From Chloroflexota bacterium (lineage in GTDB: Bacteria > Chloroflexota > UBA11872), in assembly GCA_026707285.1 (NCBI GenBank), contig JAPOXD010000021.1:2559-66558 (forward strand): DNA of 64,000 bases, given 5' to 3'. Below, piece by piece: positions 14,071 to 64,000 of this stretch. The notes below the pieces were generated by a model. It was not told the DNA's origin and made no database searches. It saw only the letters and a program-made list of their open reading frames with translations. Position 1 is the first letter of the stretch. Each line of letters begins with the position of its first letter. The position numbers and the translations under genes were made by a program.

Positions 14071-14127
14071 GTTTTACATCGCGGGCCTTCGGTATGGACG
14101 ACTAGGGGGATGATCGAACGGCGGCGC

Positions 14128-14215: not shown

Positions 14216-14341
14216 CGGATCGCATGGACTGTGGTCACTGCCACGTTCCGATCGTGAACGCGTGGCGCAAGGACCCTGCGGCGCGTTCTACATGGGGATA
14301 GAGCTGCCGGGGCGCGGGAGCAATCGAAGGAGAAACGAGCA

Positions 14342-14854: not shown

Positions 14855-14905
14855 GGCGGGCAACCGTGCCGCTTTCGAGCACTCATTCGGTGGCACCCAC
14901 CTGCA

Positions 14906-14960
14906 GTGGTTCGTGGAGCCTGTCCTGAGCTTGCCGAAGCGCTCACCACGAACGGGTGGG
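14906..14960. repeat. intergenic repeat, family A (palindromic: GTTCGTGG ... CCACGAAC)
   Basis: GTGGTTCGTGGAGCCTGTCCTGAGCTTGCCGAAGCGCTCACCACGAACGG; 8-bp stem gttcgtgg/ccacgaac. Confidence 0.55.
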
Positions 14961-15076
14961 CGGCGCGGCTGTGAACGGGCGAGTTTGAAACTCCCCCCTA
15001 TTGAGACCCCTGCGGAATCCAGCCAAGCTTGGGGATGACCGCGCGAATACTGTCCGCCCCCAGGTTCAATGCAGGG

Positions 15077-15131
15077 TGGATTCCCGCCCCGTATCAAGTA
15101 CGGGGCAGGCTCTTCGCGGGAATGACGAAGG
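15077..15131. repeat. short palindromic repeat, family B, with nested hairpin ccccgta-tcaag-tacgggg
   Basis: GGATTCCCGCCCCGTATCAAGTACGGGGCAGGCTCTTCGCGGGAATGACGAAGG. Confidence 0.55.
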
Positions 15132-15229
15132 ACAATGTAAGGGTCGCCTACGGGCGGCGCGGGCGCCGAGCGGATGGCCGATACTTGGCGGAGTCTTGCC
15201 AGACGCCGACGATCGCGGAGGAGTGATGC

Positions 15230-15778
15230 ATGGACAACGGCGTCTACATCGCGCTGCTGCGGGCCATCAACGTCGGCGGCACCAAGAAGCTGCTGATGGC
15301 CGACCTGCGGGCGATGTTCGAGGCGGCGGGGTGCACGGAGGTGCGGACATACATCCAGAGCGGCAACGTGGTATTCCGGGCGGACCCGGCGCTGGCGGAG
15401 CGTATTCCAGAACTCATTGAAGGGGAGATCGCCGCCAGCAAGGGGTTCCAAGTTCCCGTTGTAACGCGGTCGGCGGCGGAGTGGAGCGCGGTCGTGAGCG
15501 GCAATCCGTTTCTGGCGGCCGGCGCCGACCCGGCGCAGCTCCACGTGGGATTCCTGGCCGAGGAACCGGGCACGGCCCGCATCGCGGAGCTAGACCCAAA
15601 CCGCTCGCCGCAGGACGCCTTGGAGGTGAGAGGACGCGAGGTCTACCTGCACTTTCCGAATGGCACGGCGCGGTCGAAGCTGACGGTTGACTATTTCGAC
15701 CGCACCTTGGGAACGACGATCACGATTCGCAACTGGCGCACGGTCGGCAAGCTGCTCGCTATGGCTGGGGGCGACTGA
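15230..15778 (+). CDS. DUF1697 family protein
   Basis: N-terminal YIALLRAINVGG.KKLLMADLRAMFEAAG; typical ~180 aa. Confidence 0.7.
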   Translation: MDNGVYIALLRAINVGGTKKLLMADLRAMFEAAGCTEVRTYIQSGNVVFRADPALAERIPELIEGEIAASKGFQVPVVTRSAAEWSAVVSGNPFLAAGADPAQLHVGFLAEEPGTARIAELDPNRSPQDALEVRGREVYLHFPNGTARSKLTVDYFDRTLGTTITIRNWRTVGKLLAMAGGD

Positions 15779-50089: not shown

Positions 50090-50117
50090 GATCGCGCCGA
50101 GTCGCCGGAGTGCCGGA

Positions 50118-51227
50118 ATGAGCGTCGCCCTCGTCCACGACTGGCTCAATCAGCAGGGCGGCGCCGAAGTGGTGCTGGAACAACTGCACGCGATGTATCC
50201 GGACGCCCCCGTATACACGTCGTTCTATGCCCAGGACCTCGTGGACCCCGCCTTTCGTCAACTGGACGTTCGCACCAACTGGCTGCAACGCCTGCCCGGC
50301 TGGCGCACGCGGCATCAGGCCTTTCTCCCGCTCTACCCGCTCGCGTTTCAGTCGACGCGGGTCCGAGACGCCAAGGTCGTGGTGAGCAACGTGAGCGCGT
50401 TTTGCAAGGGCATTCAGACGCCGCCAGGGTCGATCCACGTCTGCTACTGCCTCACCCCGACGCGATTCATCTGGATGCCGGAGGCGTATCTGCTGCGCGA
50501 AGGCTATCCCGCCTGGCTGCCCCGCGCGCTGGCGCCGCTGCTCTGGTGGATGCGGCGGTGGGACCGCGCGGCGGCGCAGAAGGTGACGCAGTTCGTCGCC
50601 ATCTCGCAGGCCGTGGCCGAGCGGATCCGCCGCTTCTACGGGCGAGAGGCCATGGTCGTGCACCCACCGGTGCACACGACGCGGTTCGCGCCCACGACGG
50701 AGGTGGGCGACTACTTTCTGGTCGTGTCGCGGTTGATTCCCTACAAGCGCATCGACCTGGCCGTGCGCGCGTGCACGGAGGCGTCGCTGCCGCTTGTGGT
50801 CGTGGGCGACGGCCGCGACCTACACTCCCTGCGTCGGATGGCCGGGCCGACCGTCAGGTTCGCCGGCCGCGTGTCCGACGACGAAGTGCGACGGCACATG
50901 GCGCGCTGCCGCGCGTTCGTGTTCCCCGGTGAGGAGGATTTCGGCATCGCTCCGGTAGAGGCCCAGGCCGCCGGCCGCCCGGTGGTGGCATACGCCGCCG
51001 GCGGCGCGCTGGAGACCGTGCGCGACGGCGAGACGGGCGTGCTGTTTCCCGAACCGACCGTGCCCAGCCTGCTGCAGGCCCTGGAGCGCGTCACCGACAT
51101 GCCCATCGATGCCGCGCGTCTCGTGCGACATGCCGCGCAATTCGACGCCTCCGTGTTTCGGTCCAAGCTGCGGCGCGCCATCGAGCTGACCGTCGAGCGG
51201 GCGCGCGCGCCCGAGGCGGCGACCTAG
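50118..51227 (+). CDS. glycosyltransferase family 4 (GT-B)
   Basis: ..RCRAFVFPGEEDFGIAPVEAQAAGRPVVAYAAGGALETV.. Confidence 0.8.
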   Translation: MSVALVHDWLNQQGGAEVVLEQLHAMYPDAPVYTSFYAQDLVDPAFRQLDVRTNWLQRLPGWRTRHQAFLPLYPLAFQSTRVRDAKVVVSNVSAFCKGIQTPPGSIHVCYCLTPTRFIWMPEAYLLREGYPAWLPRALAPLLWWMRRWDRAAAQKVTQFVAISQAVAERIRRFYGREAMVVHPPVHTTRFAPTTEVGDYFLVVSRLIPYKRIDLAVRACTEASLPLVVVGDGRDLHSLRRMAGPTVRFAGRVSDDEVRRHMARCRAFVFPGEEDFGIAPVEAQAAGRPVVAYAAGGALETVRDGETGVLFPEPTVPSLLQALERVTDMPIDAARLVRHAAQFDASVFRSKLRRAIELTVERARAPEAAT

Positions 51228-51899
51228 GTGTCGTCGGCACGCTTCGGGCGAGTGGTGCAGCGCTGGTGGGTATTCATCGCCGCCGTCACCGGCGCCACGA
51301 TCATCGCCGCCATCGTGTGGCAACTCGTGGGACCGGTGGGGCTGCGCGCCGAGGCCGAGCTCGTCCTCACGCTGAACCTGCCGGAGGAAAGCCAGCGCCT
51401 GCAATACGGCGCCGAGAGCAGCCGGGCGCAGGCGGCGGGAATCGTGATAGAGGACCTGGCGCGTCTCACGCGCGGCCGAGAGTTGCTGCGGCTGGCGCAC
51501 GCGGAGGTGACCGACGCCGGCCACACCATGGACTTCCGGACCATGTTCGAGACCATCGACGTCTATCCGCTCTCGCGCGGGCTGCGCATCGAGCTGGATT
51601 GGGGCGACGGCCCGGCGGCGCAGGCGCTGATCGACAGCATCGTGACGCTGCTGATCGACAATCAGGATTCCTACTACCCCACGCTGGGCGAGATTGGCAC
51701 GCTGCGGCTGAGCGACAAGACTGACGAGCCCGAGCGCCCGCCGCGAGCGCTGGCGGCGCTTGACGTTGTGCTCAAGTCGGCGGTGGCGCTGATTCTTGCC
51801 GTTGCCGTAGCGCTGGTCGCGGATTGGCGGCTCAATCGGCTGCACGAGTCCGACGTGACCGACCTGATCGACGCGCCGGTGATCGGCCGCCTGCCGTGA
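51228..51899 (+). CDS. Wzz/polysaccharide co-polymerase-like protein (2 TM flanking a periplasmic domain)
   Basis: N-terminal TM (WWVFIAAVTGATIIAAIVW) and C-terminal TM (AVALILAVAVALVADW); immediately follows the GT genes; start overlaps the upstream stop. Confidence 0.5.
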   Translation: MSSARFGRVVQRWWVFIAAVTGATIIAAIVWQLVGPVGLRAEAELVLTLNLPEESQRLQYGAESSRAQAAGIVIEDLARLTRGRELLRLAHAEVTDAGHTMDFRTMFETIDVYPLSRGLRIELDWGDGPAAQALIDSIVTLLIDNQDSYYPTLGEIGTLRLSDKTDEPERPPRALAALDVVLKSAVALILAVAVALVADWRLNRLHESDVTDLIDAPVIGRLP

Positions 51900-51919
51900 C
51901 GGAAGCCCACCCCGGATCG

Positions 51920-52507
51920 ATGCGTTGGCCATTCGTCGCCATCGCGGGCGCGGCGGCGGCGGTGATCGCCGTGATCGTGAGCGCCATCGTGGTGGCGGTG
52001 GCCGAGCCGGTCTACCGCGCGTCGACGGACGTCTCGATCCGACCGAGGATCGCCGACCTGGGAGCCTCGGAAGCCGCATCACGTTTGATCCGCAACTACG
52101 CGGTCTGGGTCGACTCGGAGGGCTACGCCGCGCGGCTGAGCCCGGAGATTCGGGGCGGCCTGTCCGACGCCGAGATCGTCAAGCGCGTGCGGACCAACGG
52201 CGACTCCGACCGGCTGGTGGTGACCATTCAATCCGAGGACGAGGACGCCGACCGCGCAGCGGCGGTGGTGAACGGGCTGGCCGACGCGCTGGTGGCCGAA
52301 GTGGCCACGCCGGCGCGCTTGAACGACCCGGAGAAGGGACTCGAGGTCTCGGTCATCGACGCCGCGAAGGCGCCCGGCGCCCCGACGTGGCCGCGGGGCG
52401 AGGTGGTGATCCCGGTCGCGGCCATCGTGGGCGCCGTGGTGGGCGCCGCCGTGGCCTGGCTCATCGCCCCGGCGATGCCACGCGCGCGCAATGAAGGCGG
52501 CGCCTGA
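51920..52507 (+). CDS. second Wzz/polysaccharide co-polymerase-like protein
   Basis: TM MRWPFVAIAGAAAAVIAVIVSAIVVAVA, periplasmic region, C-terminal TM VVIPVAAIVGAVVGAAVAWLIA; start at internal ATG 51920. Confidence 0.5.
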   Translation: MRWPFVAIAGAAAAVIAVIVSAIVVAVAEPVYRASTDVSIRPRIADLGASEAASRLIRNYAVWVDSEGYAARLSPEIRGGLSDAEIVKRVRTNGDSDRLVVTIQSEDEDADRAAAVVNGLADALVAEVATPARLNDPEKGLEVSVIDAAKAPGAPTWPRGEVVIPVAAIVGAVVGAAVAWLIAPAMPRARNEGGA

Positions 52508-53034
52508 TGGGGCAGAGCGGCGGCGGAGCAGCCATGCCCGGCATCGACGAGCTGCGCACCAACGTGCTCGTGGCCCTGGCCGACACGCCGCATCCGCTCG
52601 TGGCCGTGACCAGCCCCCGCGCCGATACGCGGCGGCTGGACGTGGCAGCGGCGCTGGCGGCATCGGTGGAGCAGACCGGACGCCGGGTGGCGCTGGTGGA
52701 CGCGGACGTGTCCGAGCCGCGCGACGGCACGGCGGCGGCCGCAAGCACCGCGACCAAGACCGCGCCGGCGGTCTCCGAATCGAATCCAGCGCTGCTCGTA
52801 GCCGAGGCCTTTCGGGACCTGCTGGCCGACACCGCCGACGCCAACGACCTGGTGGTGGTGGCGTGCCCGCCGGTGCTCGACGTGGCCGAGACGCGCGCCA
52901 TCACCGCGGCGTGCACCGCCACCGTGCTCGTGGCCTCGCAGCGCACCTCACGTCGCGATTCGACGGTGCAGGCCGCCAGGGTGCTGCGCGAGGCTGGCGC
53001 GCGGCTGCTGGGCGTGGCCCTGCGACGCTCCTAG
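52507..53034 (+). CDS. BY-kinase-like (CpsD/CapB-type P-loop) domain protein with degenerate Walker A: probable pseudo-kinase or modulator
   Basis: ..LVAVTSPRADTRRLDVAAALAASVEQTGRRVALVDADV.. aligns to the BY-kinase pattern ..ITS..pgEGKST.a.NLA...A..G.rvLLiDaD.R.P but lacks GxGK[ST]; no C-terminal Tyr cluster. Confidence 0.4.
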   Translation: MGQSGGGAAMPGIDELRTNVLVALADTPHPLVAVTSPRADTRRLDVAAALAASVEQTGRRVALVDADVSEPRDGTAAAASTATKTAPAVSESNPALLVAEAFRDLLADTADANDLVVVACPPVLDVAETRAITAACTATVLVASQRTSRRDSTVQAARVLREAGARLLGVALRRS

Positions 53035-54047
53035 GCGTTCCGGCGCAGCGGACCGAGGTCGGCCGGCGGTAGCTCGTCCGCCAGCATGCGCTCGTAGGCC
53101 GCGCGCGTGGCGGCGTCGGCTTCCTCCATGACGGCGGCGGGAATGTCGGCCTCGGCTGCAGCCACCGCCGTGGCGACCTCGTCCGGATTGCGGAAACCCA
53201 CCAGCGCGGTCGAGACGGTCGGATTCTCGATGACCCAGCGCAGCGCCAGTTGCGGCAGGTCCAGTCCGGCCTGCTGCGCCAGCGCGCGCACCTGGTCCAC
53301 CACCTCGAGGTTCCGCGGCAGGTGATCGGCGCGAAACAGCGGGAGGCCGAAGGCATAGCCGGTGCCCCGCCAATCCTCCTCATCGAGCTTGGTGTCGGCG
53401 GTTAGCTGCCCGGCGAGCACACCGTGCGCCAAGGAGCCATAGGCCATTACCCCGACGCCATGCTCCTCGCAGGCGGGAAACCTGCGCTCGGCGTGGCGCC
53501 GGTCGAGCATGTGATAGCCGACCTGGTTGGCGACCATGGGCAGGACGGCCGAAGCCTCGACCATCTGCTCGGGCGTGTAGTTGGAGACGCCGACGAACCG
53601 GACCTTGCCCTCGTCGACAAGCTCCTTGGCCGCGCCCATGGTGTCGGCGATGGGCGTATCGGGGTCCGGCCAGTGGTGCAGGAACACGTCGACGTGGTCC
53701 ATGCCGAGGTTCCGCAGGCTGCGCTCGCAACTGCGGCGGACCGTCGCGGGCCGGGCGTCCAGCCGGTTGGCCTGCACGGACTCGTCGTACTCGATGCCGA
53801 ACTTAGTGACCACGATCGCTTCATCGCGTCGTCCGCGCAGGGCCGCGCCTAGCAGATTCTCGGAGTGCCCGAAGCCGTAGCCGGCGGCGGTGTCGAACAG
53901 ATTGACTCCCTGGTCGAGCGCGGCGTGGATCGTGGACGTGGCCTCGTCGTCCATGGCCGCGCCGTAAAAGCGCCCGCCCATGGGCCAGCCCCCGAATCCG
54001 ACCACGCTCACGCGCAGCTCAGGCGTCCCCAGCTCGCGGTATTGCAC
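53031..54047 (-). CDS. aldo/keto reductase
   Basis: ..GTPELRVSVVGFGGWPMGG..LFDTAAGYG.GHSE..LG.AL.....VVTKFG..; GTG start. Confidence 0.85.
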   Translation of the reverse strand: MQYRELGTPELRVSVVGFGGWPMGGRFYGAAMDDEATSTIHAALDQGVNLFDTAAGYGFGHSENLLGAALRGRRDEAIVVTKFGIEYDESVQANRLDARPATVRRSCERSLRNLGMDHVDVFLHHWPDPDTPIADTMGAAKELVDEGKVRFVGVSNYTPEQMVEASAVLPMVANQVGYHMLDRRHAERRFPACEEHGVGVMAYGSLAHGVLAGQLTADTKLDEEDWRGTGYAFGLPLFRADHLPRNLEVVDQVRALAQQAGLDLPQLALRWVIENPTVSTALVGFRNPDEVATAVAAAEADIPAAVMEEADAATRAAYERMLADELPPADLGPLRRNA

Positions 54048-54055
54048 GCCCGCGC

Positions 54056-55072
54056 CTAAGCCTCCCGTCGCAGCGGACCGACCCCGGCCGGCGGCTGCTC
54101 GTCCGCCCGCATGCGCTCGTAAGCCGCGCGGGTAACGTCCTCAGCCTCTTGCATGACGGCAGCAGGGACGTCCGCATCGGCCGCGGCCGCCGCCGCGGCG
54201 ACTTCGTCTGGATTGCGGAACCCAACCAGCGCGGTCGAGACGGTCGGATTCTCGATGACCCAGCGCAGGGCCAGCTGCGGCAGGTCCAGTCCGGCCCGCT
54301 CGGCGAGCGCCCGCACCTGGTCCACGACATCCAAATTCTGCGGCAAGTGGTCGGCGTGAAAGATCGGCAAGCCGAAGGCATAGCCCGTGGCGCGCCAGTC
54401 GTCGTCGTTGAGCTTGGTGTCGAGCGTGAACTGCCCGGCCAGCACGCCGTGCGCCAGCGACCCGTAGGCCATCACCCCGACGCCGTGCTCCTCGCACGAC
54501 GGGAAGATCCGCTCGGCGTGGCGCCGGTCGAGCATGTGGTAGCCGACCTGGTTGGCGACGATCGGCAGGACCGCCGACGCCTCGGCCATCTGCGCGGGCG
54601 TGTAGTTGGAGACGCCGACGAACCGGACCTTGCCCTCGTCGACCAGCTCCTTGGCGACGCCCATGGTGTCGGCGATGGGCGTATCGGGGTCCGGCCAGTG
54701 GTGCAGGAACACGTCGATGTGGTCTATGCCCAGGTGCCGCAGGCTGCTTTCGCAGCCCCGGCGGACCGCCGAGGGGCGCCCGTCGCGGCGGTAGGCGTGC
54801 ACGGACTCATCCCGGTATATGCCGAACTTGGTGACCACGATCACCTCGTCGCGCCGCCCGCGCAGCGCGGCGCCCATCAGCGCCTCGGAGTGCCCCATGC
54901 CGTAGCCGGCGGCGGTGTCGAACAGGTTGATGCCCTGGTCGATCGCCGCGTGAATCGTGGACGTGGCCTCGGCGTCCATGTCCGCGCCGTAGAAGCGCCC
55001 GCCCATGGGCCAGCCGCCAAACCCGACCACGCTGACCCGAAGCTCCGGCGTTCCCATCTCGCGGTACTGCAC
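54056..55072 (-). CDS. aldo/keto reductase (tandem paralog, ~85% identical)
   Basis: near-identical to 53031..54047 at nucleotide and protein level; GTG start at 55072 (the ORF extends artefactually to 55195). Confidence 0.85.
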   Translation of the reverse strand: MQYREMGTPELRVSVVGFGGWPMGGRFYGADMDAEATSTIHAAIDQGINLFDTAAGYGMGHSEALMGAALRGRRDEVIVVTKFGIYRDESVHAYRRDGRPSAVRRGCESSLRHLGIDHIDVFLHHWPDPDTPIADTMGVAKELVDEGKVRFVGVSNYTPAQMAEASAVLPIVANQVGYHMLDRRHAERIFPSCEEHGVGVMAYGSLAHGVLAGQFTLDTKLNDDDWRATGYAFGLPIFHADHLPQNLDVVDQVRALAERAGLDLPQLALRWVIENPTVSTALVGFRNPDEVAAAAAAADADVPAAVMQEAEDVTRAAYERMRADEQPPAGVGPLRREA

Positions 55073-55209
55073 GCCCACACCCTTTCCCCGACCCGTTGCG
55101 TGCGAAGCATGCGCCCGGCACCGGCGCGGGTCAACCGCGACTGATACCATATGCACGGCGCGCCTTGCCCGGCATCCGGCGCCCGCCCCACGCATCCACG
55201 AGGAGTCCT

Positions 55210-55539
55210 ATGTCGTTCGCGGTGATCCGCTCGGGTGGCCAGCAGTTCCGCGTGCAGCCCGGAGACGTGATCGACGTGGAGCTGCGGGACGAGTCGTCCG
55301 GACCGGTGGCGTTCGAGGACGTGCTGCTGATCGATGACGACGACGGCCGGCACGTGGGCACGCCCACGCTGGACGGCGCGACCGTGCGCGGTACGGCGCT
55401 GGGCGAGGTCAAGGGGCGCAAGGTGCGGATCTTCACCTACCACGCCAAGAAACGACACCGGCGGCGCATGGGCCACCGGCAACGCTATACCCGGATTCGC
55501 ATCGACGGCATCGACCGAGAGGCGTCGGCGGGCGACTAG
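55210..55539 (+). CDS. rplU: 50S ribosomal protein L21
   Basis: [24 protein letters not shown]..; aggag RBS at 55201. Confidence 0.9.
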
Positions 55540-55559
55540 ACAGAGAAGCGGGGAACCTC

Positions 55560-55814
55560 ATGGCACATAAGAAAGGCCTCGGCAGCAGCCGCAACGGACG
55601 CGACAGCAACCCCAAGATGCTGGGCGTCAAGCGCTCGGACGGCGAGTTCGTGCGCCCGGGCGAGATCATCGTGCGGCAGCGCGGCACCAAGCTGCTGCCC
55701 GGACCCAACATCGGCGTCGGCCGCGACCACACGCTCTTCGCGCTCATCGAGGGCCACGTCGTCTTCGAGCGCATGCGCGGGCGCACCCGCGTGCGCGTGG
55801 CGGACGCGGCCTAA
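55560..55814 (+). CDS. rpmA: 50S ribosomal protein L27
   Basis: [44 protein letters not shown].. Confidence 0.95.
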
Positions 55815-55826
55815 ACTACAGCTTCA

Positions 55827-55902
55827 GGGCCGATAGCTCAGTCGGAAGAGCGCCGCACTCGCATTGCGGAGGTCGTGGGTTCGAGTCCCATTCGGTCCAC
55901 CA
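55827..55902 (+). tRNA. tRNA-Ala (anticodon CGC)
   Basis: GGGCCGATAGCTCAGTCGGAAGAGCGCCGCACTCGCATTGCGGAGGTCGTGGGTTCGAGTCCCATTCGGTCCACCA; G3:U70 identity pair; CCA encoded. Confidence 0.85.
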
Positions 55903-56037
55903 AGTGATGTCGTTTGTAGGCGCCAGAATCCATTCCGACGACCTTACGCGTATGCTTCTAAGGCGTGCACACATTGCGCTCGCTAGGCTGGGCCGCTCGC
56001 GTGTGCTACATTCCCGTACCACAGATACGGTCAGGAA

Positions 56038-56718
56038 ATGTTGCACATGCCAAGCGGACTCGAAGCACCCCGAGAATCCTCGGGGTGCATTGTGTTGACC
56101 GGCGTCGACGCCATCGCCGCGCTGGCGAAGTTGGGGCTCGACCATCCGGATGACGCTGATCGAATTCGGTCCTTCGTCAGGGTTGCAGTGCGCACGGCTC
56201 GGGAAAAGCAAGTTGGCTACGCCTCAAACTATGCGGGCATCGTCGCGCACAACGAAGTCCTCCACGGACTTTGCAGCATCCTACGCGACCGAGGTTGGAA
56301 TGAGCTTGAACGCAAGAATCACCTATTGATTGCCCATCCCGATTCGGGGGTTACTTTCGGCGTATCGTCGGCCGATCAAGACACCGGGATTCGCCAAGGG
56401 GACCCATGTACCCGGTACCCGAAAGGTCAAATGACCAGGCGGGTGGTGATCGCCAACCATCTTCGGTTTGATCAAACCACGCCGACATTTCCCAAGCCGG
56501 CACTGCTTCGGCGTAACACCTATCTGCTGCTGTTTTACGATGACATCGACCGGAAGCAGATTCGCTTAGAGATTTCACGACCGCTTTTCATGGGTTCCAC
56601 CAATCGCCTAGCCGGCTGGGATCGCCGGAACATTCTTCCTCCAATCGACCTGTCGGGTGCGCCTGCGATCAAACAGCCAGGACCCGTCAGCTTCGACGTG
56701 AGAGTGAGACGCAATTAG
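56038..56718 (+). CDS. hypothetical protein (islet cargo, no recognisable family)
   Basis: 226-aa ORF; lower GC than the genome average; lies between two tRNA-Ala copies. Confidence 0.4.
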   Translation: MLHMPSGLEAPRESSGCIVLTGVDAIAALAKLGLDHPDDADRIRSFVRVAVRTAREKQVGYASNYAGIVAHNEVLHGLCSILRDRGWNELERKNHLLIAHPDSGVTFGVSSADQDTGIRQGDPCTRYPKGQMTRRVVIANHLRFDQTTPTFPKPALLRRNTYLLLFYDDIDRKQIRLEISRPLFMGSTNRLAGWDRRNILPPIDLSGAPAIKQPGPVSFDVRVRRN

Positions 56719-56977
56719 CGAATATACAGCTTCGCGGCTTAGCCCGACACGGCTGGAGGTCGCCCGCAAGCGGCGTGGCCTGACTAGCAAGGCCCTCGCA
56801 GAAGCTGTCAGTCTCTCGGCATGGAGTCTAAGGGCCTATCAGCGTGGTGAGCGTACGCCTACTGCCGACACGGTCCGGCGCCTAAGTGAAGCTGTTGATT
56901 TCCCGGAGGCCTTCCTGACGGCTCCTGAGATTGACAAACTCGCACCAAGGTCCATTAGTTTCCGCTCGCTGCATCGC

Positions 56978-57832
56978 ATGTCACAGCGCGTGCGCGACAA
57001 GGCAGTCGCGACCGCGACAATCGCCATTCAGTTGGCCACCTGGGTTGACGGGGAGTTTGTCTTACCGAAGCCCAAGATACCTGACTGGCAGTCTGTACCA
57101 CCGGAGGAAGCTGCGTTGGGGCTTCGCCAGAATTGGGACGTGGGGATGGACCCGTTGCCCAATATGGTCCACTTGTTGGAGTCACGTGGCGTAAGGGTGT
57201 TCTCGTTGGTCGAGGAGTGTCGAGACCTCGATGGCCTGTCGCTTTGGCACGATTCGACACCTTACGTATTTCTCAATACGACTAAACCAGCAGCCAGAAG
57301 TCGATTTTCTGCGGCCCACGAGCTTGGACACCTATTGCTCCATCGGGCCTTCGGTCCTTCCGGTCATCGGACGACCGAGGCGGAAGCTAACCGGTTTGCT
57401 TCCGCATTCCTAATGCCGCGAGACAACATCATTGATAGTGTGCCCAAGGACAGCACGTTGAAAGAACTTGAGCATCACGCACGCACGTGGAACGTTTCGG
57501 TTCAGGCTCTCATCTATCGTATGCACGAAATCGGCATGACGACCCGGTGGCGCTACCGGTCATTGTTTATCGGCTACAACCGACGCCCGTTAGACGACTC
57601 AGGGCCAGGCGAGACGTCCAAGGTTTATCGGCAGGTGTTTGACCTGTTGCGCGCACAGGGTCGAGACCGATCCGATGTGGCCGACGCCATTCACCTGCAC
57701 CTCGAAGATCTTCATGCGCTAGTGTTCGGCCTCGTCCCAACCATCCTTCCAGACGATCCAAGTCCCAGCCAGGTGCCCTATGACTCCATTCCGGAGACGG
57801 TGACCGGTACAGGTCCCCAACTTGTGCCCTAA
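56978..57832 (+). CDS. ImmA/IrrE-family (DUF955) zinc metallopeptidase domain; the open frame continues upstream into an XRE-type HTH domain (from ~56740) that has no canonical start codon
   Basis: HEXXH motif AAHELGHLLLH and typical ImmA/IrrE context; upstream in-frame translation ..LEVARKRRGLTSKALAEAVSLSAWSLRAYQRGERTPTADTVRRLSEAVDFPEAF.. is a classic XRE HTH. Confidence 0.65.
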   Translation: MSQRVRDKAVATATIAIQLATWVDGEFVLPKPKIPDWQSVPPEEAALGLRQNWDVGMDPLPNMVHLLESRGVRVFSLVEECRDLDGLSLWHDSTPYVFLNTTKPAARSRFSAAHELGHLLLHRAFGPSGHRTTEAEANRFASAFLMPRDNIIDSVPKDSTLKELEHHARTWNVSVQALIYRMHEIGMTTRWRYRSLFIGYNRRPLDDSGPGETSKVYRQVFDLLRAQGRDRSDVADAIHLHLEDLHALVFGLVPTILPDDPSPSQVPYDSIPETVTGTGPQLVP

Positions 57833-57906
57833 CCACTCTAGGCTGCTGGTTGAGGACGGTTGAGGCATCTACGGCGCTGTCGGAGATTTGTTCGGAGGGG
57901 CCAGGC

Positions 57907-57978
57907 GGCCGATAGCTCAGTCGGAAGAGCGCCGCACTCGCATTGCGTAGGTCGTGGGTTCGAGTCCCATTCGGTCCA
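57907..57978 (+). pseudogene. second, slightly degenerate copy of tRNA-Ala(CGC): probable att-site duplicate
   Basis: identical to 55831..55902 except G->T in the anticodon stem (C27:U43 mismatch) and an altered 5' end (GGCGGCCGA vs GGGCCGA) that disrupts acceptor pairing. Confidence 0.6.
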
Positions 57979-58130
57979 CCAGCACTTCTTGAACATGCCG
58001 TTGCAACACGCCAACGATTGCCCGATGCCACGGACCTCCCATGGGACGGGCTCCTTTCGTCAGTTCAGTAGGGTATTGGTACGATAGAGCCACATCGTAA
58101 AGGCTCTTAACTTTGCGGAGGCAATAGTCA

Positions 58131-59120
58131 ATGGAAAGCTCCATTTACACACCTGAAAGCTACACGGATCGAATACGACATGTACTCGGCAACTGCCTCA
58201 TCGAGACGAGTGTTTCTCAAAGTGAGAAGCTCATCGGCAAAGTACGTGATCGGTACGATCTCGGGGACCGTTTAGCACTCATCACCACCGACCGTCAGAG
58301 TGCCTTCGACCGGGTGCTGGCCGCTATCCCCTTCAAAGGCCAGGTCCTCAACATGACGAGCGCATGGTGGTTTGAACAGACCCGCCATATCGTGCCAAAT
58401 CACGTTTTATCCGTTCCCGACCCAAACGTCACAATTGCGAAGAAATGCACCGTTTTCCCAATTGAGTTCGTGGTGCGTGGATACATTACCGGAACCACCA
58501 GCACCGCCCTCTGGACGGTCTACCAGAGTGGTCAGCGGAACTATTGTGGAATCGACCTGCCCGAAGGCCTGGTCAAAAACCAGAAGCTTCCGACGAATTA
58601 TCTGACACCGACCACCAAGGCGGAGGATCACGACCGTCCGATCAGCCCGGACGAGATCGTGTCCGAGAACTGGATGACGGCCGATGATTGGGAACAATGC
58701 AGTCGCATCGCCCACGAGCTCTTCGCTTTCGGTCAAGCCAAGGCAGCCGAGCACGGCCTGGTTCTCGTGGATACCAAGTACGAAATGGGCCATGACGAAA
58801 ACGGTGAGATCCTTTTGATTGACGAGATTCATACCCCTGACTCCAGTCGCTACTGGATCGCCGACTCGTATCAGCATCGCATGCGCGAGGGACGGGAACC
58901 CGACAACGTCGACAAGGAATTCCTCCGGCTATGGTTCACGGAGAATTGCAATCCCTACGAGGATGAGGTCCTCCCGCCGGCGCCGGACGACCTTGTCGTC
59001 GAGCTTTCACGACGCTACATCTACCTGTACGAGAAGATCACCGGTCGCTCTTTCGAGTTTCCAGGGACGGACCAGCCCATCGACACGCGATTGGCCAGCA
59101 ACCTTCAAGGAATTGCATGA
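58131..59120 (+). CDS. purC: phosphoribosylaminoimidazole-succinocarboxamide (SAICAR) synthase, long eukaryote/ADE1-type
   Basis: block-by-block match to ADE1-type PurC: IGKVRDRYDL..LALITTDRQSAFDRVL, FPIEFVVRGYITGT, YLTPTTKAEDHDRPISP, LVLVDTKYEMGHDENGEILLIDEIHTPDSSRYW, DKEFLRLWF. Confidence 0.8.
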   Translation: MESSIYTPESYTDRIRHVLGNCLIETSVSQSEKLIGKVRDRYDLGDRLALITTDRQSAFDRVLAAIPFKGQVLNMTSAWWFEQTRHIVPNHVLSVPDPNVTIAKKCTVFPIEFVVRGYITGTTSTALWTVYQSGQRNYCGIDLPEGLVKNQKLPTNYLTPTTKAEDHDRPISPDEIVSENWMTADDWEQCSRIAHELFAFGQAKAAEHGLVLVDTKYEMGHDENGEILLIDEIHTPDSSRYWIADSYQHRMREGREPDNVDKEFLRLWFTENCNPYEDEVLPPAPDDLVVELSRRYIYLYEKITGRSFEFPGTDQPIDTRLASNLQGIA

Positions 59121-59149
59121 AGGTGTTCGGAGTGCAGTAGGGACCAACG

Positions 59150-59794
59150 GTGAAGAAATACATTCTCTTCGACCACGATGGGGTTCTGGTGGAAACCGAA
59201 TACTGGTATTTCAAGGCCGGCGAGCGCGCCCTGGCTGACGTTGGGTTTGCCATGGATCGAGACCAATACCTCCGAGACATGACCCAGGGAAATGCCACCT
59301 GGGCCCAAGCCATCGCGGCAGGTGTTGATGAACAGATCATCGACAGGCAGCGCGAGGTCCGTAACGCCTATTACCAGGAATATCTTCGAACCGAGGACAT
59401 CGAGATCGATGGAGTCTTGGAAACGCTGGACGTTCTCGCAGGTGCGTTCAGGATGGGCATCATTACCACGTCCAAACCAGATGATTTCGCCCTAATACAC
59501 AAGAGGCGAACCATCCTGGACTATATGGAATTCCATTTGGCTCGGGATGACTACGAACGAGCCAAACCACATCCCGAACCCTATCTGCGAGGGCTCGAGC
59601 GCTTCGGCGCCACTGCCGCTGAAGCGGTGGTCATTGAAGACTCGGCGAGAGGGTTGGAGTCGGCCATTGCGGCGGGTATTGACTGCATCGTGGTTGCGAA
59701 CGAGTTCACGGCATCTCACGACTTGTCCAAAGCAACCGCCAAGGTCGATACGTTTAGGGAATTGCCAACTGCTATAAAGGGATTAGCAAGCTAG
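59150..59794 (+). CDS. HAD-superfamily hydrolase (subfamily IA, phosphatase-like)
   Basis: motif I ILFDHDGVLVET; ..IITTSKPDD.. (motif II); ..KPHPEPY.. and ..IEDSARG.. (motifs III/IV). Confidence 0.75.
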   Translation: MKKYILFDHDGVLVETEYWYFKAGERALADVGFAMDRDQYLRDMTQGNATWAQAIAAGVDEQIIDRQREVRNAYYQEYLRTEDIEIDGVLETLDVLAGAFRMGIITTSKPDDFALIHKRRTILDYMEFHLARDDYERAKPHPEPYLRGLERFGATAAEAVVIEDSARGLESAIAAGIDCIVVANEFTASHDLSKATAKVDTFRELPTAIKGLAS

Positions 59795-59858
59795 CCAGGC
59801 GCTATTGCCGCCGCGCCAGACGCCTGCGCGATAGAGGCCGGGCGGCGAGACGGGAGCC

Positions 59859-61232
59859 GTGCACATGAGCACCGGGCGGGTCGTCATTGTTGGCGGGGGA
59901 TTCGCCGGGCTCAGCGCCGCCTACACGCTCATGAAACGGGGCATCACGCCCCTCCTGCTGGAAGCCAACGAGCGCGTGGGCGGACGCGGCCGCGGCGAGC
60001 GGGTGGACGGGTTCTCCCTGGACATGGGCGCCTTCGTCTTCACCTCCACCTACGACACCGCCTTCCGCATGTGCGAAGAGCTGGGCCTGCCGCTCGTGCC
60101 GTCGATGATGAAGTTCGGCCACCACCGCAATGGACGCTGGGTGACCACGACGCCGGACCAATCGCTCTGGAATTTCATCCGGCACCTGCGGACGGCCATC
60201 ACCATGGGCTTTCTCTCGCCCGCGGGCATGCGGGCGGGGTTCAAGGTGATGCGGGAGATCCATCGCCAGGCCGAGTACATGAGCTTCGCCAGCGACAGCC
60301 CTATCGCCGAGATCGACGACGACGAGTCTTTCGGCGACTACATGCAGCGGCTCAACGTGCCCGAGAACTTGCAGCTGACGCTCGAGGCGCCTCTCAAGAT
60401 GATTCTGGGCGATCCGCGGCCCGCGGGACAGGCGCTGATGCGGGCCTACATCGGCGAAACGATGCTGCACGAGGGCCAGGTTTCCATGCCCGAGCGAGGC
60501 ATCGGCTCCCTGAGCGAGACGCTGGCCACATACTGCGCCGACGCGATTCGCGTCTCGACCCCCGTCAGGAAAGTGGTCGTCGCGGACGGGTCGGCGACCG
60601 GCGTGGTCACGGACGGCGAGACGATCGAGGCGGACGCCGTCATCTGCGCCGTCCCCGGCACCAAGGTCGCGGACCTTATCCCCGACCTGCCGGCCGAAAC
60701 GCGCCGCGCGCTCGGCACCGTCAGCTACTCGACCGGTTGCCGGGTGGTGATCGGCCTCGACCGCTCCCCGCTCCCTCCCGGCTGGCACGGCGCGCTCTAC
60801 CCAGAGGACGACGACGCCCCGCTGCTGCTGGACCGGACCGCCTTCCTGCCGTCCTGCGCGCCGCCGGGCAAGGGCATTCTCGACCTGCTCATCGGGCGCG
60901 ACCGCGCCAAGGAGCTCATCCCGCTCGACGACGAGGAGATCAAGCGCGAGATGCTGGGCGCCGCTCGCCGTAACGCGCCGCCCGGCTCAGCGCTTCCCGG
61001 CGACGACGAGGGCCTCTTCTATCGGGTATACCGCTGGGAAGAGGCGCTGTGCATGGGCACGCCCGGCATGCTGGCGGCGGTGGCGAAGATCCCGGAGCAG
61101 CTCGCCGGACGCATCGACAACCTGTTCCTGGCGGGCGATTACATGGCCGTACCGTCGGTCAACGGCGCCCTCTCGAGTGGCCAGAGCGCCGCCATAGAGG
61201 TCGCGGACCTGTTGGCGGCTCACGTCAGTTAG
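59859..61232 (+). CDS. FAD-dependent oxidoreductase (amine oxidase / protoporphyrinogen-oxidase / phytoene-desaturase-like)
   Basis: N-terminal VVIVGGGFAGLSAAYTL..LLEANERVGGRG dinucleotide-binding motif; C-terminal ..NLFLAGDYMAVPSVNGALSSG.. typical of this fold. Confidence 0.7.
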   Translation: MHMSTGRVVIVGGGFAGLSAAYTLMKRGITPLLLEANERVGGRGRGERVDGFSLDMGAFVFTSTYDTAFRMCEELGLPLVPSMMKFGHHRNGRWVTTTPDQSLWNFIRHLRTAITMGFLSPAGMRAGFKVMREIHRQAEYMSFASDSPIAEIDDDESFGDYMQRLNVPENLQLTLEAPLKMILGDPRPAGQALMRAYIGETMLHEGQVSMPERGIGSLSETLATYCADAIRVSTPVRKVVVADGSATGVVTDGETIEADAVICAVPGTKVADLIPDLPAETRRALGTVSYSTGCRVVIGLDRSPLPPGWHGALYPEDDDAPLLLDRTAFLPSCAPPGKGILDLLIGRDRAKELIPLDDEEIKREMLGAARRNAPPGSALPGDDEGLFYRVYRWEEALCMGTPGMLAAVAKIPEQLAGRIDNLFLAGDYMAVPSVNGALSSGQSAAIEVADLLAAHVS

Positions 61233-61245
61233 GCCGGACGTCCGC

Positions 61246-61959
61246 TTAGGGTTGGCTCGCCCCGTCGTCTGTCGATCGTGCGAGCCCCCAGCCCAACAGC
61301 CCCATGTAGACGAGGCCGGCGATGGACATCAGGGCGAACACGGGCGCCAACGCCAGCTCCAAGGCGTTTGAATGCCACGCGGCGATGAACACCACCAGCG
61401 ACGCCACGGCCAGCACCGCCACGATGGGATGCAGGACCGGGGACAGACGAATGGGTTCAGGCCGGGCAGCCAGGCCCAGCGCGAAGATCGCCGTCCCGAC
61501 AGAGCCGACGACGCCGGACGTGAAGTGGAAGCCCCACACCATCCGCTGCATGGCCAGCGCCGAATCGAGCCATTCCTGCGACTTCGCCGCCTCGCTCTCC
61601 AGCGCCGCCAGTCCCATGCCGACGATCATGTAGTCGAGGCCCCGCATCATCATCTGCAAGGTCGCGGCAATGACCATCCCCAGCAGGCCGAGCCGAGCCA
61701 CCGGACCGGCATACCGCCGCAGCGTCAGGAGTCCGTGCAGCATCAGCAGCGCGCCGCAGATGATGACCACCGGCACGGTGTAGGACAGCGTCGCGTTGCG
61801 CGCCATCGCCAGCGTGAGGTCGCTGAGGCTCGTGCTCGGCACCGTGTCCACCGCCCCACGACCCGGCGAGAGCGCATAGCCCACCCCCACCACCACCATC
61901 CCCAGCAGCAACGACCAGCCGCCGAGCTGCTTATCGGTGAAACGTCCGAGGAAACTCAC
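61246..61959 (-). CDS. hypothetical integral membrane protein (6 TM)
   Basis: hydrophobic segments throughout; no motif recognised. Confidence 0.45.
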   Translation of the reverse strand: MSFLGRFTDKQLGGWSLLLGMVVVGVGYALSPGRGAVDTVPSTSLSDLTLAMARNATLSYTVPVVIICGALLMLHGLLTLRRYAGPVARLGLLGMVIAATLQMMMRGLDYMIVGMGLAALESEAAKSQEWLDSALAMQRMVWGFHFTSGVVGSVGTAIFALGLAARPEPIRLSPVLHPIVAVLAVASLVVFIAAWHSNALELALAPVFALMSIAGLVYMGLLGWGLARSTDDGASQP

Positions 61960-62183
61960 GTTATGTATCCACGGAGGCCGGGTGGATATTGCCCGGAGTC
62001 ATTGGAGTTCCTCCACCGGCGATGTTTGCGTGATGAGTCGACATAGCTCGCCCAAGGCTCGGATCAACCTCACCCTAGCTTGCTTTGCGCGCCACGGACT
62101 ACAGGCCCGCAGAGTCCACCAGATATGACCATGGTCATGACCATGGTAGGATAGTGTCCACCTATCCAGTCGAGAAGAGGGCG

Positions 62184-62465
62184 ATGACGACGGAAGCCCC
62201 TAGGAAGCCCGGGCCGCGGACGATCAAGGCGTCGGAGTTCAAGGCCAAGTGCCTGAAGCTCATGGACGAGGTGGCGGAGAGCGGCGAGGAGATCGTCATC
62301 ACCAAGAACGGCCGTCCGGTATCGCGGCTGACGCCCTACCGGGAACGGCCCGCAAGCCTATTCGGCATTGACCGAGGCCGGTACGAGATTCTGGGCGACA
62401 TCATCGAACCGATCGACGTCGAATGGGAGGCCCAGTCCGACCCGGACCGCGTGTTGAATCCGTGA
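62184..62465 (+). CDS. Phd/YefM-type antitoxin (VapB-like)
   Basis: ..IKASEFKAKCLKLMDEVAESGEEIVITKNGRPVSRLTPY..; start at the MTTEAPRK ATG within ORF 62085..62465 (coordinate approximate); stop overlaps the toxin start (GTGA). Confidence 0.7.
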   Translation: MTTEAPRKPGPRTIKASEFKAKCLKLMDEVAESGEEIVITKNGRPVSRLTPYRERPASLFGIDRGRYEILGDIIEPIDVEWEAQSDPDRVLNP

Positions 62466-62860
62466 TCCTGCTCGATACGCACGTCATGCTGTGGCTGCGA
62501 CTGGGCGATGCGCGGCTCGGAGCCGGCGCGCGCTCGGCCATCGACCGGGCCTGGCAGTCGGATGAGGTCTGCGTTTCCGCCGTCTCGTTCTGGGAAGCGG
62601 CCCTGCTCAAGGCGAAGCAGCGGATCCAGTTTCCCGAGGACGTCGGTCTTTGGCGCCGCGAGCAATTGGAGCAAGGAGTCGTCGAGATTCCCATGAACGG
62701 CGTGATTGGAATCCGCGCGGCGACGCTCCCGGAGTTCCACGCCGACCCGGCCGACCGCTTGATCGTGGCAACCGCGCTGGAGGGTCATCGGCTGGTGACC
62801 GCCGACCGGCGGATTCTCGAATGGTCGGGGCAGGTGAGCCGTCTGAACGCTACGCAGTAG
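62462..62860 (+). CDS. vapC: PIN-domain toxin VapC
   Basis: VILLDTHVMLWL...(D)...SAVSFWEAALL...RLIVATALEGHRLVTADRRIL: PIN acidic residues in canonical spacing; GTG start overlapping the antitoxin stop. Confidence 0.75.
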   Translation: MILLDTHVMLWLRLGDARLGAGARSAIDRAWQSDEVCVSAVSFWEAALLKAKQRIQFPEDVGLWRREQLEQGVVEIPMNGVIGIRAATLPEFHADPADRLIVATALEGHRLVTADRRILEWSGQVSRLNATQ

Positions 62861-62992
62861 GCCTCGAGGCGGACCCGGTGGGTGCCCGAGCGGGTTGTCT
62901 CCTTGGGGCGGCCTTTGGGAATTGGCGAATGGGCGGGTTTGAAACCCGCCCCTACATGAGGCGCCCTGCCCGGCATAAGGTTTGACTGGACT

Positions 62993-63024
62993 GGATTCCG
63001 GCCTCCGCCGGAATGACGGACAGG
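62993..63024. repeat. family B palindromic repeat
   Basis: GGATTCCGGCCTCCGCCGGAATGACGGACAGG. Confidence 0.5.
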
Positions 63025-63096
63025 CTTGCAGAGGTCTTGCTAGACGGACGGCCCCGAAATCGCTCCAACGATGGGGACGATTCCAGCCCCCCTCGG

Positions 63097-63996
63097 TCAT
63101 TCGAACAGGTGGTGAAAGGGCTTGGACGATGTCTCCGGCTCGGCTTCCTCCGTGAAGCCGATGTGGAAGAGTGCGTCGCCTTCGTGGGCGAGGGGGAGGT
63201 TCGTGCGGCCCACGATCACGCCGTCCATGGGCGATTTGATGTCGGTTTCCGTCTCGCCCAGCGGATCCGAGACGACGGCCAGCAGCGCTCCGTCCTCGAT
63301 CTCGGCGCCGATCGGCTGTCGCATCCTGATCACGCCGCTGGCCGGGGCCCGCACCCAGCTGCTCTCGCGCAGGATCACGGGAGCTTCCGTTTCGCTGACC
63401 CGCTTTTGCTTGGGCAACATGCCGAGATGCTCCATGACCCCGATCACGCCCCATAGACCAGTGCGTATCGCCGTTTCATCGAAGCGGAGCGCTTCGCCGG
63501 CTTCGTAGACGATCACGGGAACGTCTCGCTTGTCGGCCGCCTCGCGCAGGCTCCCATCTCGGGAGGCGGAATTCACCACCAGCGGAGCGCCGAACGCCCG
63601 CGCCATGGGCTCGGCCGCGGGATTGTCCAGATCGACGCGAATTTGCGGATAGTTCTCCCGGTGCACGGCGCCGGTGTGGAGGTCGATGCCGTGCGTGGCG
63701 CTCGAGAGGATCTGGTCGACGAACATCTCGGCGAGGCGGGCGGCCAGCGAGCCTTTGGCGGACCCGGGGAAGGAGCGGTTGAGGTCGCGCCGGTCCGGCA
63801 GGTATCGACTGAGATTCAAGAAGCCGGGCACGTTCACGATTGGAACGGCGATCAGCGCTCCCTTGAGGCGCCTCAAGGCGGCCAGCTTGATGATGCGCCG
63901 GATGATCTCGACCCCGTTGAGCTCGTCGCCGTGGATGGCAGCCGAGACGAACAAGACCGGCCCATCCTCGGCGCCGTTGATGACGTGCACCGGCAT
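63097..63996 (-). CDS. succinylglutamate desuccinylase / aspartoacylase (AstE/AspA) family zinc hydrolase
   Basis: N-terminal ..GPVLFVSAAIHGDELNGVEIIRRI.. (H-x-x-E zinc motif) and length ~300 aa typical of the family. Confidence 0.7.
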   Translation of the reverse strand: MPVHVINGAEDGPVLFVSAAIHGDELNGVEIIRRIIKLAALRRLKGALIAVPIVNVPGFLNLSRYLPDRRDLNRSFPGSAKGSLAARLAEMFVDQILSSATHGIDLHTGAVHRENYPQIRVDLDNPAAEPMARAFGAPLVVNSASRDGSLREAADKRDVPVIVYEAGEALRFDETAIRTGLWGVIGVMEHLGMLPKQKRVSETEAPVILRESSWVRAPASGVIRMRQPIGAEIEDGALLAVVSDPLGETETDIKSPMDGVIVGRTNLPLAHEGDALFHIGFTEEAEPETSSKPFHHLFE

Positions 63997-64000
63997 CGCC

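Follow-up and report, generated by a model that had tools for sequence, protein, structure and literature searches.

The stretch of DNA analysed here, a window of 64,000 nucleotides, comes from a Chloroflexota/Dehalococcoidia genome in which about 2 kb have been inserted between rpmA-tRNA-Ala and purC, with a copy of a tRNA-Ala(CGC) gene at either end. The question raised by this locus is what such a small islet represents, the original prediction having offered either a degraded mobile element or a minimal regulator-effector module of the abortive-infection type. The two descriptions turn out to hold together, the first on account of empty sites and an att-type repeat, the second on account of matches to the Rosmer models in PADLOC. 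The reading that we consider probable, and with some confidence, is of a horizontally acquired, integrase-less cassette akin to a cis-mobilizable element (CIME) and bounded by tRNA-Ala(CGC), the whole cargo of which is one toxin-antitoxin/anti-phage module of the RosmerTA type. The islet is real but largely ordinary, as RosmerTA is already a known kind of module.

The gene pair and its assignment to RosmerTA

Both genes of the islet lie on the forward strand. The first, rmrT (56047-56718), encodes a putative toxin/effector of 223 amino acids from the second of two ATG codons, which is the start conserved in the family; use of the alternative ATG at 56038 gives the longer reading frame (56038-56718) of 226 amino acids which had been described as an unknown protein between the tRNA copies. 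The reading frame exists as described, but rather than being cargo it is the RmrT toxin partner of the XRE-ImmA protein, as judged from its match to the PADLOC RmrT profile PDLC03935 (E=8.7e-35, 195/207 profile positions covered). The second gene, rmrA, is the putative antitoxin/regulator (56714-57832, from its probable start; frame open from 56708 to 57832). It encodes an XRE helix-turn-helix (HTH) domain (HTH_3, E=9.7e-8, approximately 56762-56908) followed in frame by an M78/ImmA zinc peptidase (Peptidase_M78, PF06114, E=1.4e-20, approximately 57179-57523) with the HELGH motif encoded at 57317-57331, and the predicted order of these two domains is thereby borne out by Pfam. RmrA matches the PADLOC profile PDLC03949 with E=1.1e-119, its C-terminal region is conserved family-wide and all family-invariant residues are retained, H202, E203, H206 and E222 being invariant in the alignment. 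The two genes are adjacent and co-oriented, both PADLOC matches are near full length, the partner gene belongs to the recognised RmrT family and the peptidase domain has an intact HExxH motif; on the PADLOC matches the pair is therefore a RosmerTA module, and the search of a defence-system database suggested by the original prediction was positive for both genes.

An exhaustive HMMER search places RmrT in a family of 799 clusters of uniform length, 798 of which were reached by that search alone, a word-indexed protein search having returned a single homologue. It has no match in Pfam, NCBIfam or PHROG, none among 50,697 phage GenBank records, and no relatives in scans of JGI metagenome contigs and IMG/VR viral contigs; when 72 members of the family were compared with Pfam, two chance hits were all that was found. 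The subfamily has a soluble alpha/beta fold which is weakly restriction-endonuclease-like, and for this reason nuclease activity is possible. A sequence profile search of the PDB gave BstYI alone (E=0.37), Foldseek against the PDB gave no match below E 0.06, and a canonical PD-(D/E)xK motif was looked for in RmrT and not found. The invariant residues of the family are W87, G130, N140, E178, P182 and R197. By family membership RmrT would be a growth-arresting effector.

The module resembles the published RosmerTA systems (Millman et al. 2022, bioRxiv 10.1101/2022.05.11.491447; Ernits et al. 2023, PMC10440598) in being a two-gene operon with the toxin first, in which an antitoxin with an ImmA/M78 zinc peptidase (HExxH) and a predicted N-terminal XRE HTH is paired with a small toxin lacking a Pfam domain. 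In these systems the RmrT toxins are diverse and of unknown function, RmrA combines HTH and ImmA domains, the toxin comes first in 58% of cases, rmrA is reported to be essential in strains of other species which carry a Rosmer system, and a delta-rmrA mutant reportedly proved unobtainable. Sphingomonas and Pantoea plasmids carry the same toxin-then-antitoxin pair as well, the two Pantoea genes overlapping by ATGA. Phage defence has been demonstrated solely for other Rosmer systems, and for the module described here, from an uncultured Chloroflexota/Dehalococcoidia lineage, it is predicted. It differs further in that its rmrA has no canonical start, and in that its RmrT is predicted to be soluble, whereas the RmrT of Gordonia phage Kita depolarises membranes. 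A more distant likeness is to the spr1630/spr1629 pair of Streptococcus pneumoniae (NF052239), the antitoxin of which has the same HTH and M78 architecture; RmrA matches this family with E=6.2e-28, but at 97.9 bits it falls far under the equivalog cut-off of 335 and is thus related at a distance, outside the equivalog itself. Our understanding of RosmerTA and related systems is unchanged by these findings; what is gained is a functional assignment for a previously unannotated gene pair, and the extension of RosmerTA to uncultured Chloroflexota/Dehalococcoidia, whose defence systems have been little explored.

Translation start of rmrA and control of the operon

The HTH of rmrA lies in frame ahead of the M78 domain and no in-frame ATG, GTG or TTG occurs upstream of ATG 56978, just as had been noted originally. 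Two homologues of 66% identity (L093 and L094) have GTG 2 nt past the rmrT stop codon, where the window and its relative L001 have GCT, and the canonical GTG/ATG start of the family thus appears to have been lost. Of the two explanations put forward earlier, a non-canonical start or a decayed N-terminus, the first is favoured. Translation most likely begins at ATT 56714, which overlaps the rmrT stop codon (ATTAG), by termination-reinitiation coupling at that stop; both the ATT and the overlap are conserved in L001. ATT initiates poorly, and the sequence ahead of it (GAGAGTGAGA) is purine-rich without forming a clear Shine-Dalgarno motif. Two other solutions were considered and rejected. A start at CTG 56753 is possible, but it has no Shine-Dalgarno-like sequence upstream and residues conserved in the family would be lost; a +1 frameshift producing an RmrT-RmrA fusion at ...CGC AAT TAG would require slippage at AAU, which is not a slippery P-site codon, and the homologues are separate genes with their own starts.

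The alternative that bears most directly on this region is that the module is decaying, the start having been lost and the HTH being untranslated, so that either a 284-aa peptidase from ATG 56978 or nothing is made and the toxin is inactive or in the process of being lost. Such a reading would account for the missing start codon in both the window and L001 when homologues have GTG, for the fact that gene callers annotate solely the 284-aa product, and for a cassette which lacks an integrase and is flanked by tRNA copies in decay. We nevertheless regard it as distinctly unlikely, as both reading frames are intact in two independent copies, no invariant family residue has been lost and the ATT-stop overlap parallels the ATGA overlap of the Pantoea homologue. 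The comparison of the window with L001 argues in the same direction: dN/dS is 0.38 for rmrT, 0.145 for the remainder of rmrA and 0.175 for the HTH segment, a value that rests on 9 substitutions, 6 of which are synonymous when approximately 2.4 would be expected under neutrality. An HTH segment under purifying selection with no canonical start before it offers a small example of an antitoxin whose translation begins at a non-canonical codon, probably by coupling, and bears on how the toxin:antitoxin ratio is set where the antitoxin is an enzyme.

Since rmrT and rmrA are adjacent, share an orientation and overlap by 5 nt at the stop and start codons, they form a single operon. An imperfect palindrome on the forward strand (56002-56047, arms 56002-56020 and 56029-56047) takes in the Shine-Dalgarno sequence (AGGAA) and the start codons of rmrT. 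Its arms are complementary at approximately 15/20 positions in the window, and it is found in relatives with arms of 20 nt at 85% (L001), 19 nt at 89% (L093) and a perfect 18 nt (L094); the arms co-vary between lineages, so that where the window has A/T, L093 has G/C. The palindrome is a candidate operator for the RmrA HTH, or else a candidate 5' hairpin masking the ribosome-binding site. A scan of 55800-58200 for sigma-70-like promoters gave 0 sites.

RmrA, a fused XRE-HTH and ImmA/M78 zinc peptidase, would keep RmrT harmless and probably also act as a repressor of the operon, by way of the conserved palindrome that covers the ribosome-binding site of rmrT. By analogy with published Rosmer, ImmR/ImmA and CapH/CapP systems, phage infection or stress would be expected to disable RmrA or bring about its cleavage, with the consequence that RmrT is released and the infection aborted.

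In a second alternative, a prophage or ICE has degraded and left the XRE-ImmA gene behind as its ImmR/ImmA-like switch, the gene upstream being unrelated cargo. RmrA does share its XRE HTH and M78 domains with ImmR/ImmA of ICEBs1 and the CBASS-associated CapH/CapP, CapP, CapH and ImmR being matched in the PDB and PADLOC, and plausibly shares with them a regulation by cleavage of the HTH part; it matches phrog_2439, annotated as a transcriptional regulator, with E=2.3e-81, and the gene sits at a tRNA integration site. Set against this, the two domains are fused here into one reading frame, upstream of which one and the same family of 215-225 amino acids recurs in different phyla, both genes match models that are specific to Rosmer, and RmrT is absent from the phage records searched. 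The islet itself contains no genes of phage, conjugation, integrase or excisionase type, and has neither excision functions nor a CBASS operon for such a switch to control. A leftover switch is consequently highly improbable, and the regulator is not counted among the ImmR/ImmA excision switches of prophages and ICEs.

The tRNA-Ala copies and the variable slot between them

Copy 1, the functional tRNA-Ala(CGC) gene (55827-55902, forward strand), lies 3' of rpmA and forms the left, attL-type boundary of the cassette. It was detected by both ARAGORN and Rfam (68.6 bits), retains the alanine identity pair G3:U70 and folds at minimum free energy into a cloverleaf (-29.5 kcal/mol), in agreement with its earlier description as intact. 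Copy 2 (57906-57981, forward strand; ARAGORN and Rfam, 57.5 bits) is a decaying duplicate which forms the right, attR-type boundary. The direct repeat spans 75 nt (55828-55902 and 57907-57981, 74/75 identical), and not the 72 nt given originally, whereas the broken 5' end of the acceptor and the mismatch in the anticodon stem had been correctly described: G1->C produces a C1:C72 mismatch and G43->T a C27:U43 mismatch. The chance expectation for a 25-nt probe from the 3' part of the tRNA is 0 matches. With these two helix-breaking changes the minimum free energy fold of copy 2 (-22.9 kcal/mol) has no cloverleaf and loses the anticodon arm. The sequence of copy 1 is invariant among all close relatives, whilst the downstream copies carry disruptive substitutions which differ from relative to relative and in one case change the anticodon; copy 2 therefore has neither the paired-stem cloverleaf nor the conservation of a functional tRNA. 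No third tRNA fragment was found near 59800 or elsewhere within 50000-64000.

The inserted segment, comprising the cassette and one tRNA copy, was delimited by empty-site alignment and composition to 2,079 bp (55903-57981, forward strand). It has a GC content of 0.55-0.60, compared with 0.68-0.72 upstream, and the low-GC block does not end at copy 2 but takes in purC-HAD as well, up to about 59800. As a separate observation, this low-GC metabolic pair, purC-HAD, immediately follows a tRNA CCA end, the tRNA not being the same one from species to species.

In alignments with relatives, homology is lost precisely where copy 1 ends and is regained where copy 2 begins. Alignment with the empty-site relative L016 runs up to 55902 and then from 57907 onwards, and the arrangement rpmA-tRNA-purC with a single tRNA is found in L014 and L047 as well. 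In close relatives with flanks of 88-94% identity, the slot is either empty or filled with other cargo between the same tRNA repeats, such as a DUF6364/PIN toxin-antitoxin pair, unknown proteins, or AbiTii with a DrmC-like PLD nuclease. An intact tRNA at one end, a tRNA direct repeat at the other, empty sites in close relatives and an atypical GC content together characterise a tRNA island, and the proposed status of copy 2 as an att-type duplicate is upheld by the breakpoints, the empty sites and the invariance of copy 1. In L001 positions 55966-57896 are matched at 95.5% identity when the flanks are just 72% identical, and the cassette was therefore acquired by horizontal transfer, at a hotspot that varies between strains. 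Comparing the rpmA-tRNA-Ala locus between relatives, as the original prediction had advised, therefore shows the islet to be variable, and provides a clean natural case of the recent transfer of a defence cassette between species at a tRNA hotspot, with empty sites as controls.

Two assemblies made independently from different samples (L099 and L100) reproduce the arrangement at 100% identity, which rules out an assembly artefact. Contig L099 (2,109 bp) was considered as a circular excised form and rejected, as its ends are k-mer branch points at the repeat, i.e., assembly breaks. That a functional tRNA was simply duplicated in tandem around core genes, or that a short-read metagenome contig was mis-assembled at a repeat, is hardly credible and largely refuted, for although ARAGORN and Rfam still call copy 2 a tRNA and the second copy in the relative L005 is 76/76 identical to copy 1, copy 2 has lost its cloverleaf, the downstream copies and slot contents vary, and long chromosome-level MAGs (L013) show the same array structure.

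Arrival of the cassette and tRNA-bounded arrays

An autonomous island would carry an integrase, and none is present here, nor any other recombinase, within 55903-57905; this absence is consistent with a CIME-like remnant. Two routes are the most likely for its arrival, and the evidence fits either: site-specific recombination at the tRNA, with a large serine recombinase of the type found in the relative L006 as the enzyme acting in trans, or homologous exchange between tRNA copies. In L006 an intact large serine recombinase adjoins tRNA copy 4, its last 25 or so codons being antisense to that copy; the window contains no homologue of this gene beyond the tRNA-antisense stretch. In L001 a degenerate internal tRNA copy separates sub-cassettes, and the sequences next to the tRNA copies have nothing in common from one cassette to another.

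These tRNA-bounded cassette arrays are a more interesting side lead than the islet itself. A possible, if doubtful, extension is that tRNA genes act as integron-like docking sites for arrays of very small integrase-less cassettes, with large serine recombinases inserting and shuffling them in trans, defence modules and purC-HAD being moved, and rmrA deliberately kept at low expression. Were this so, each cassette in this lineage of sponge-associated-type Chloroflexota would end in a full-length tRNA copy, the 3' coding end of the recombinases would itself be the antisense of a tRNA copy, and RosmerTA, DUF6364/PIN, AbiTii and DrmC-like PLD modules would move between species; the ATT-initiated rmrA would be a catalytic antitoxin whose low expression is deliberate.

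A precedent within the phylum Chloroflexota is provided by the tandem ssrA islands of Dehalococcoides, together with CIMEs (McMurdie et al. 2011, PMC3146451). The target here is tRNA-Ala(CGC) and not tmRNA, the repeat is a whole tRNA of 75 nt and not 20 bp, and the cassettes, the mobility of which is predicted, are very small (0.8-3 kb) and hold mostly toxin-antitoxin/defence genes; unlike in Dehalococcoides, no DsiA-like second recombinase was seen. The likeness lies in arrays delimited by a directly repeated small-RNA gene, in integrase-less members and strain-variable content, and in the position of the serine recombinase, which in L006 is approximately 550-600 amino acids long and lies on the reverse strand beside the left repeat.

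A RosmerTA gene pair between two tRNA-Ala copies

The islet of about 2 kb lying after rpmA and before purC is, as read from its sequence, a predicted RosmerTA module inside a cassette bounded by tRNA copies and resembling a cis-mobilizable element (CIME), and adds one more example to an already known kind of system. Its two ORFs share one orientation: rmrT (56038-56718; the start conserved in the family is the second ATG, 56047) and rmrA (open from 56708 to 57832), which, as originally described, encodes an XRE helix-turn-helix (HTH) followed in frame by an ImmA/IrrE peptidase (Peptidase_M78) domain with HELGH. The rmrT protein found no match in Pfam, NCBIfam or PHROG; it matched the PADLOC RmrT model (PDLC03935) at E=8.7e-35 with near-complete profile coverage, and the HTH-M78 protein matched the RmrA model (PDLC03949) at E=1.1e-119, the pair being recognizable as both components of RosmerTA. 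The gene first described as unknown 226-aa cargo is thus not mere cargo but a predicted toxin partner, and of the readings offered by the original prediction the regulator-effector module agrees with the RosmerTA models, whilst the prophage or ICE switch gives way to a predicted Rosmer antitoxin; as a whole that interpretation is supported and sharpened.

RmrT can be placed in a populated family because an exhaustive HMMER search found 799 clusters at 50% identity, every one of about 215-225 aa. Relatives were found by tblastn on Sphingomonas and Pantoea plasmids, each directly upstream of an ImmA/XRE gene. RmrA retains all invariant residues of its family, its nearest solved relatives by sequence being 9vzy (an HTH-peptidase protein), CapP, CapH and ImmR. 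RmrT toxins are diverse, 58% of pairs have the toxin gene in first place and an N-terminal HTH is often present in the antitoxin node (PMC10440598); a delta-rmrA mutant proved unobtainable (bioRxiv 10.1101/2022.05.11.491447), and rmrA is essential in system-bearing strains (PMC13566846).

Translation and possible control of the pair

The lack of a canonical start before the HTH was confirmed, the first in-frame ATG, GTG or TTG of rmrA being ATG 56978. Two homologues with 66-67% identity and the same toxin-then-antitoxin order (L093 and L094) have a GTG two bases past the toxin stop codon, giving M-G/H-R-L-S-P-T-R-L, and more distant homologues start 1-12 residues ahead of the same F/L-x-P-x-R-L motif. 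The window and contig L001, an independent copy, both have GCT as the equivalent codon; the sole near-cognate codon upstream of it is ATT 56714, which overlaps the rmrT stop codon (ATTAG in the window, ATTAA in L001), and in a Pantoea homologue the two genes overlap at this junction in the classical ATGA form. Initiation is probably by termination-reinitiation at this ATT, with CTG 56753 as a weaker alternative. When the window is compared with L001, the 88 codons ahead of the first ATG have 6 synonymous substitutions against 3 non-synonymous ones (dN/dS 0.175, from small counts), resembling the remainder of rmrA (0.145; rmrT, 0.38), and this low ratio suggests that the HTH is most likely still translated.

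An imperfect palindrome (arms 56002-56020 and 56029-56047) spans the rmrT start codons together with the AGGAA Shine-Dalgarno sequence. In L001 the arms of this element are 20 nt long with 85% complementarity, in L093 they are 19 nt with 89%, and in L094 they are 18 nt and pair perfectly, base changes between lineages being mirrored in both arms; the palindrome is a likely operator, with RmrA as the candidate protein to bind it, or else a hairpin hiding the ribosome-binding site. A second palindrome with a perfect 10-bp stem (56065-56088; GCACCCCGAG-AATC-CTCGGGGTGC), picked up by a terminator scan, lies within the rmrT 5' end at about codons 7-14; present in L001 with one mismatch, it might serve as another operator or form a hairpin in the mRNA.

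tRNA-bounded cassettes at a variable site

ARAGORN called tRNA-Ala(cgc) at both boundaries, copy 1 at 55827-55902 (Rfam, 68.6 bits) and copy 2 at 57906-57981 (57.5 bits). The duplication originally proposed is therefore present, although the direct repeat measures 75 nt rather than 72 (55828-55902 against 57907-57981, 74/75 identical); a 25-nt probe from its 3' end had a chance expectation of zero in shuffled sequence. Two substitutions set copy 2 apart from copy 1, G1 to C and G43 to T, and produce C1:C72 and C27:U43 mismatches, both non-standard pairs by cmscan. The minimum-free-energy structure of copy 1 is the cloverleaf (-29.5 kcal/mol, 44% of the ensemble), whereas that of copy 2 is not and has lost the anticodon arm (-22.9 kcal/mol). 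Copy 1 is unchanged throughout relatives; the downstream copies carry differing substitutions, with the anticodon altered in one, and appear to vary as expected of non-functional att-type repeats.

The window is assigned to a MAG lineage of the Chloroflexota/Dehalococcoidia. ENA contig ERZ27276916:k141_28310 matches it at 100% identity, and its cassette is reproduced exactly in independent contigs from two other samples. In contigs with an identical L27 the flanks match those of the window at 88-94% identity, the homology ending exactly at 55902 and restarting at 57907. Presence or absence at the rpmA-tRNA-Ala locus, a comparison that the original prediction called for, varies among relatives: three sites are empty, with rpmA, one tRNA-Ala and then purC (L016, L014, L047; in L016 the tRNA-to-purC distance equals that from copy 2 to purC), and close relatives hold other cargo between their own tRNA-Ala copies. 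The locus is accordingly a hotspot, and the islet an insertion within it. The other cargo comprises a 543-589-aa unknown protein and a DUF6364/PIN_3 toxin-antitoxin pair in L003 and L004, fn3 and Tricorn/PD40 proteins in L005, and cassettes including DUF6364/PIN_3 among four tRNA copies in L006. Locus L013 (6079-7861) has three tRNA-Ala-derived copies around two cassettes of about 0.8 kb, one a DUF6364/PIN_3 pair and the other two small overlapping ORFs without known function; ARAGORN reads its third copy as tRNA-Ser(cga), i.e., with a mutated anticodon.

L001 shares 1,932 bp of the cassette at 95.5% identity, whereas its rplU-rpmA region is just 72% and its L27 protein 76% identical, which argues that the cassette is common to both by recent horizontal transfer. 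There the same tRNA hosts an island of 5.3 kb in which the cassette lies alongside AbiTii and a DrmC-like PLD nuclease. A degenerate internal tRNA-Ala copy (2645-2708; nhmmer E=8e-13) divides the AbiTii block from the block of nuclease and RmrTA, which indicates that the island is itself an array of tRNA-bounded cassettes.

Route of arrival and neighbouring genes

No recombinase gene lies between the tRNA copies of the islet. Locus L006 has an intact gene for a large serine recombinase (13878-15671, minus strand; Resolvase, Recombinase and Zn_ribbon_recom domains) adjoining the fourth tRNA-Ala copy, its last ~25 codons being the antisense of that copy. An element of this kind would bring along a complete tRNA copy and so account for the full-length repeats. 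The tandem ssrA islands of Dehalococcoides likewise carry, beside attL, a reverse-strand gene for a serine recombinase of ~540 aa, and their integrase-less members, which the islet resembles in having no recombinase of its own, were interpreted as cis-mobilizable elements (PMC3146451). There is some evidence for an alternative route, in which the tRNA copies serve for homologous exchange: the duplication at one L006 copy extends to 46 nt from the 3' end of rpmA, several of them mismatched, and the sequences flanking the tRNA copies of different cassettes have nothing in common.

Remnants of homologous recombinases, at 48-55% identity, occur immediately 5' of purC in four other species (L019, 6917-7852; L031, L043 and L075, about 7275-7855; all minus strand), the C-terminal end in L019 overlapping a tRNA-Lys. 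At the empty site of L016 (7776-7964) the tRNA antisense and 113 nt downstream still match recombinase residues 540-597. From these matches, the spacer that separates copy 2 from purC in the window (57982-58130) may be a recombinase vestige.

The low-GC block runs on beyond copy 2 through purC (58131-59120) and a HAD hydrolase gene (59150-59794). Across 80 species (L013-L092) this pair has a GC of 0.49-0.62, mostly 0.50-0.57 and usually lower than its flanks (0.44-0.71), and its proteins are 81-93% identical; some genomes hold it twice. Nucleotide homology begins, in several genomes, 36-41 nt ahead of the purC ATG, right after the CCA end of a tRNA (Ala-cgc, Val-cac, Lys-ctt or Ile-gat), and the pair has the look of a two-gene module that spreads horizontally and lands at tRNA 3' ends.

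Upstream of rplU-rpmA are two tandem aldo-keto reductase paralogues (53031-54047 and 54056-55195, minus strand; ~85% nucleotide identity); L003 and L004 have a single gene, so copy number is variable there. About 4 kb downstream of the islet, a PhdYeFM-antitoxin/PIN toxin pair (about 62184-62860, plus strand; coordinates as annotated on L002, an identical contig, and carried over) is kept in close relatives.
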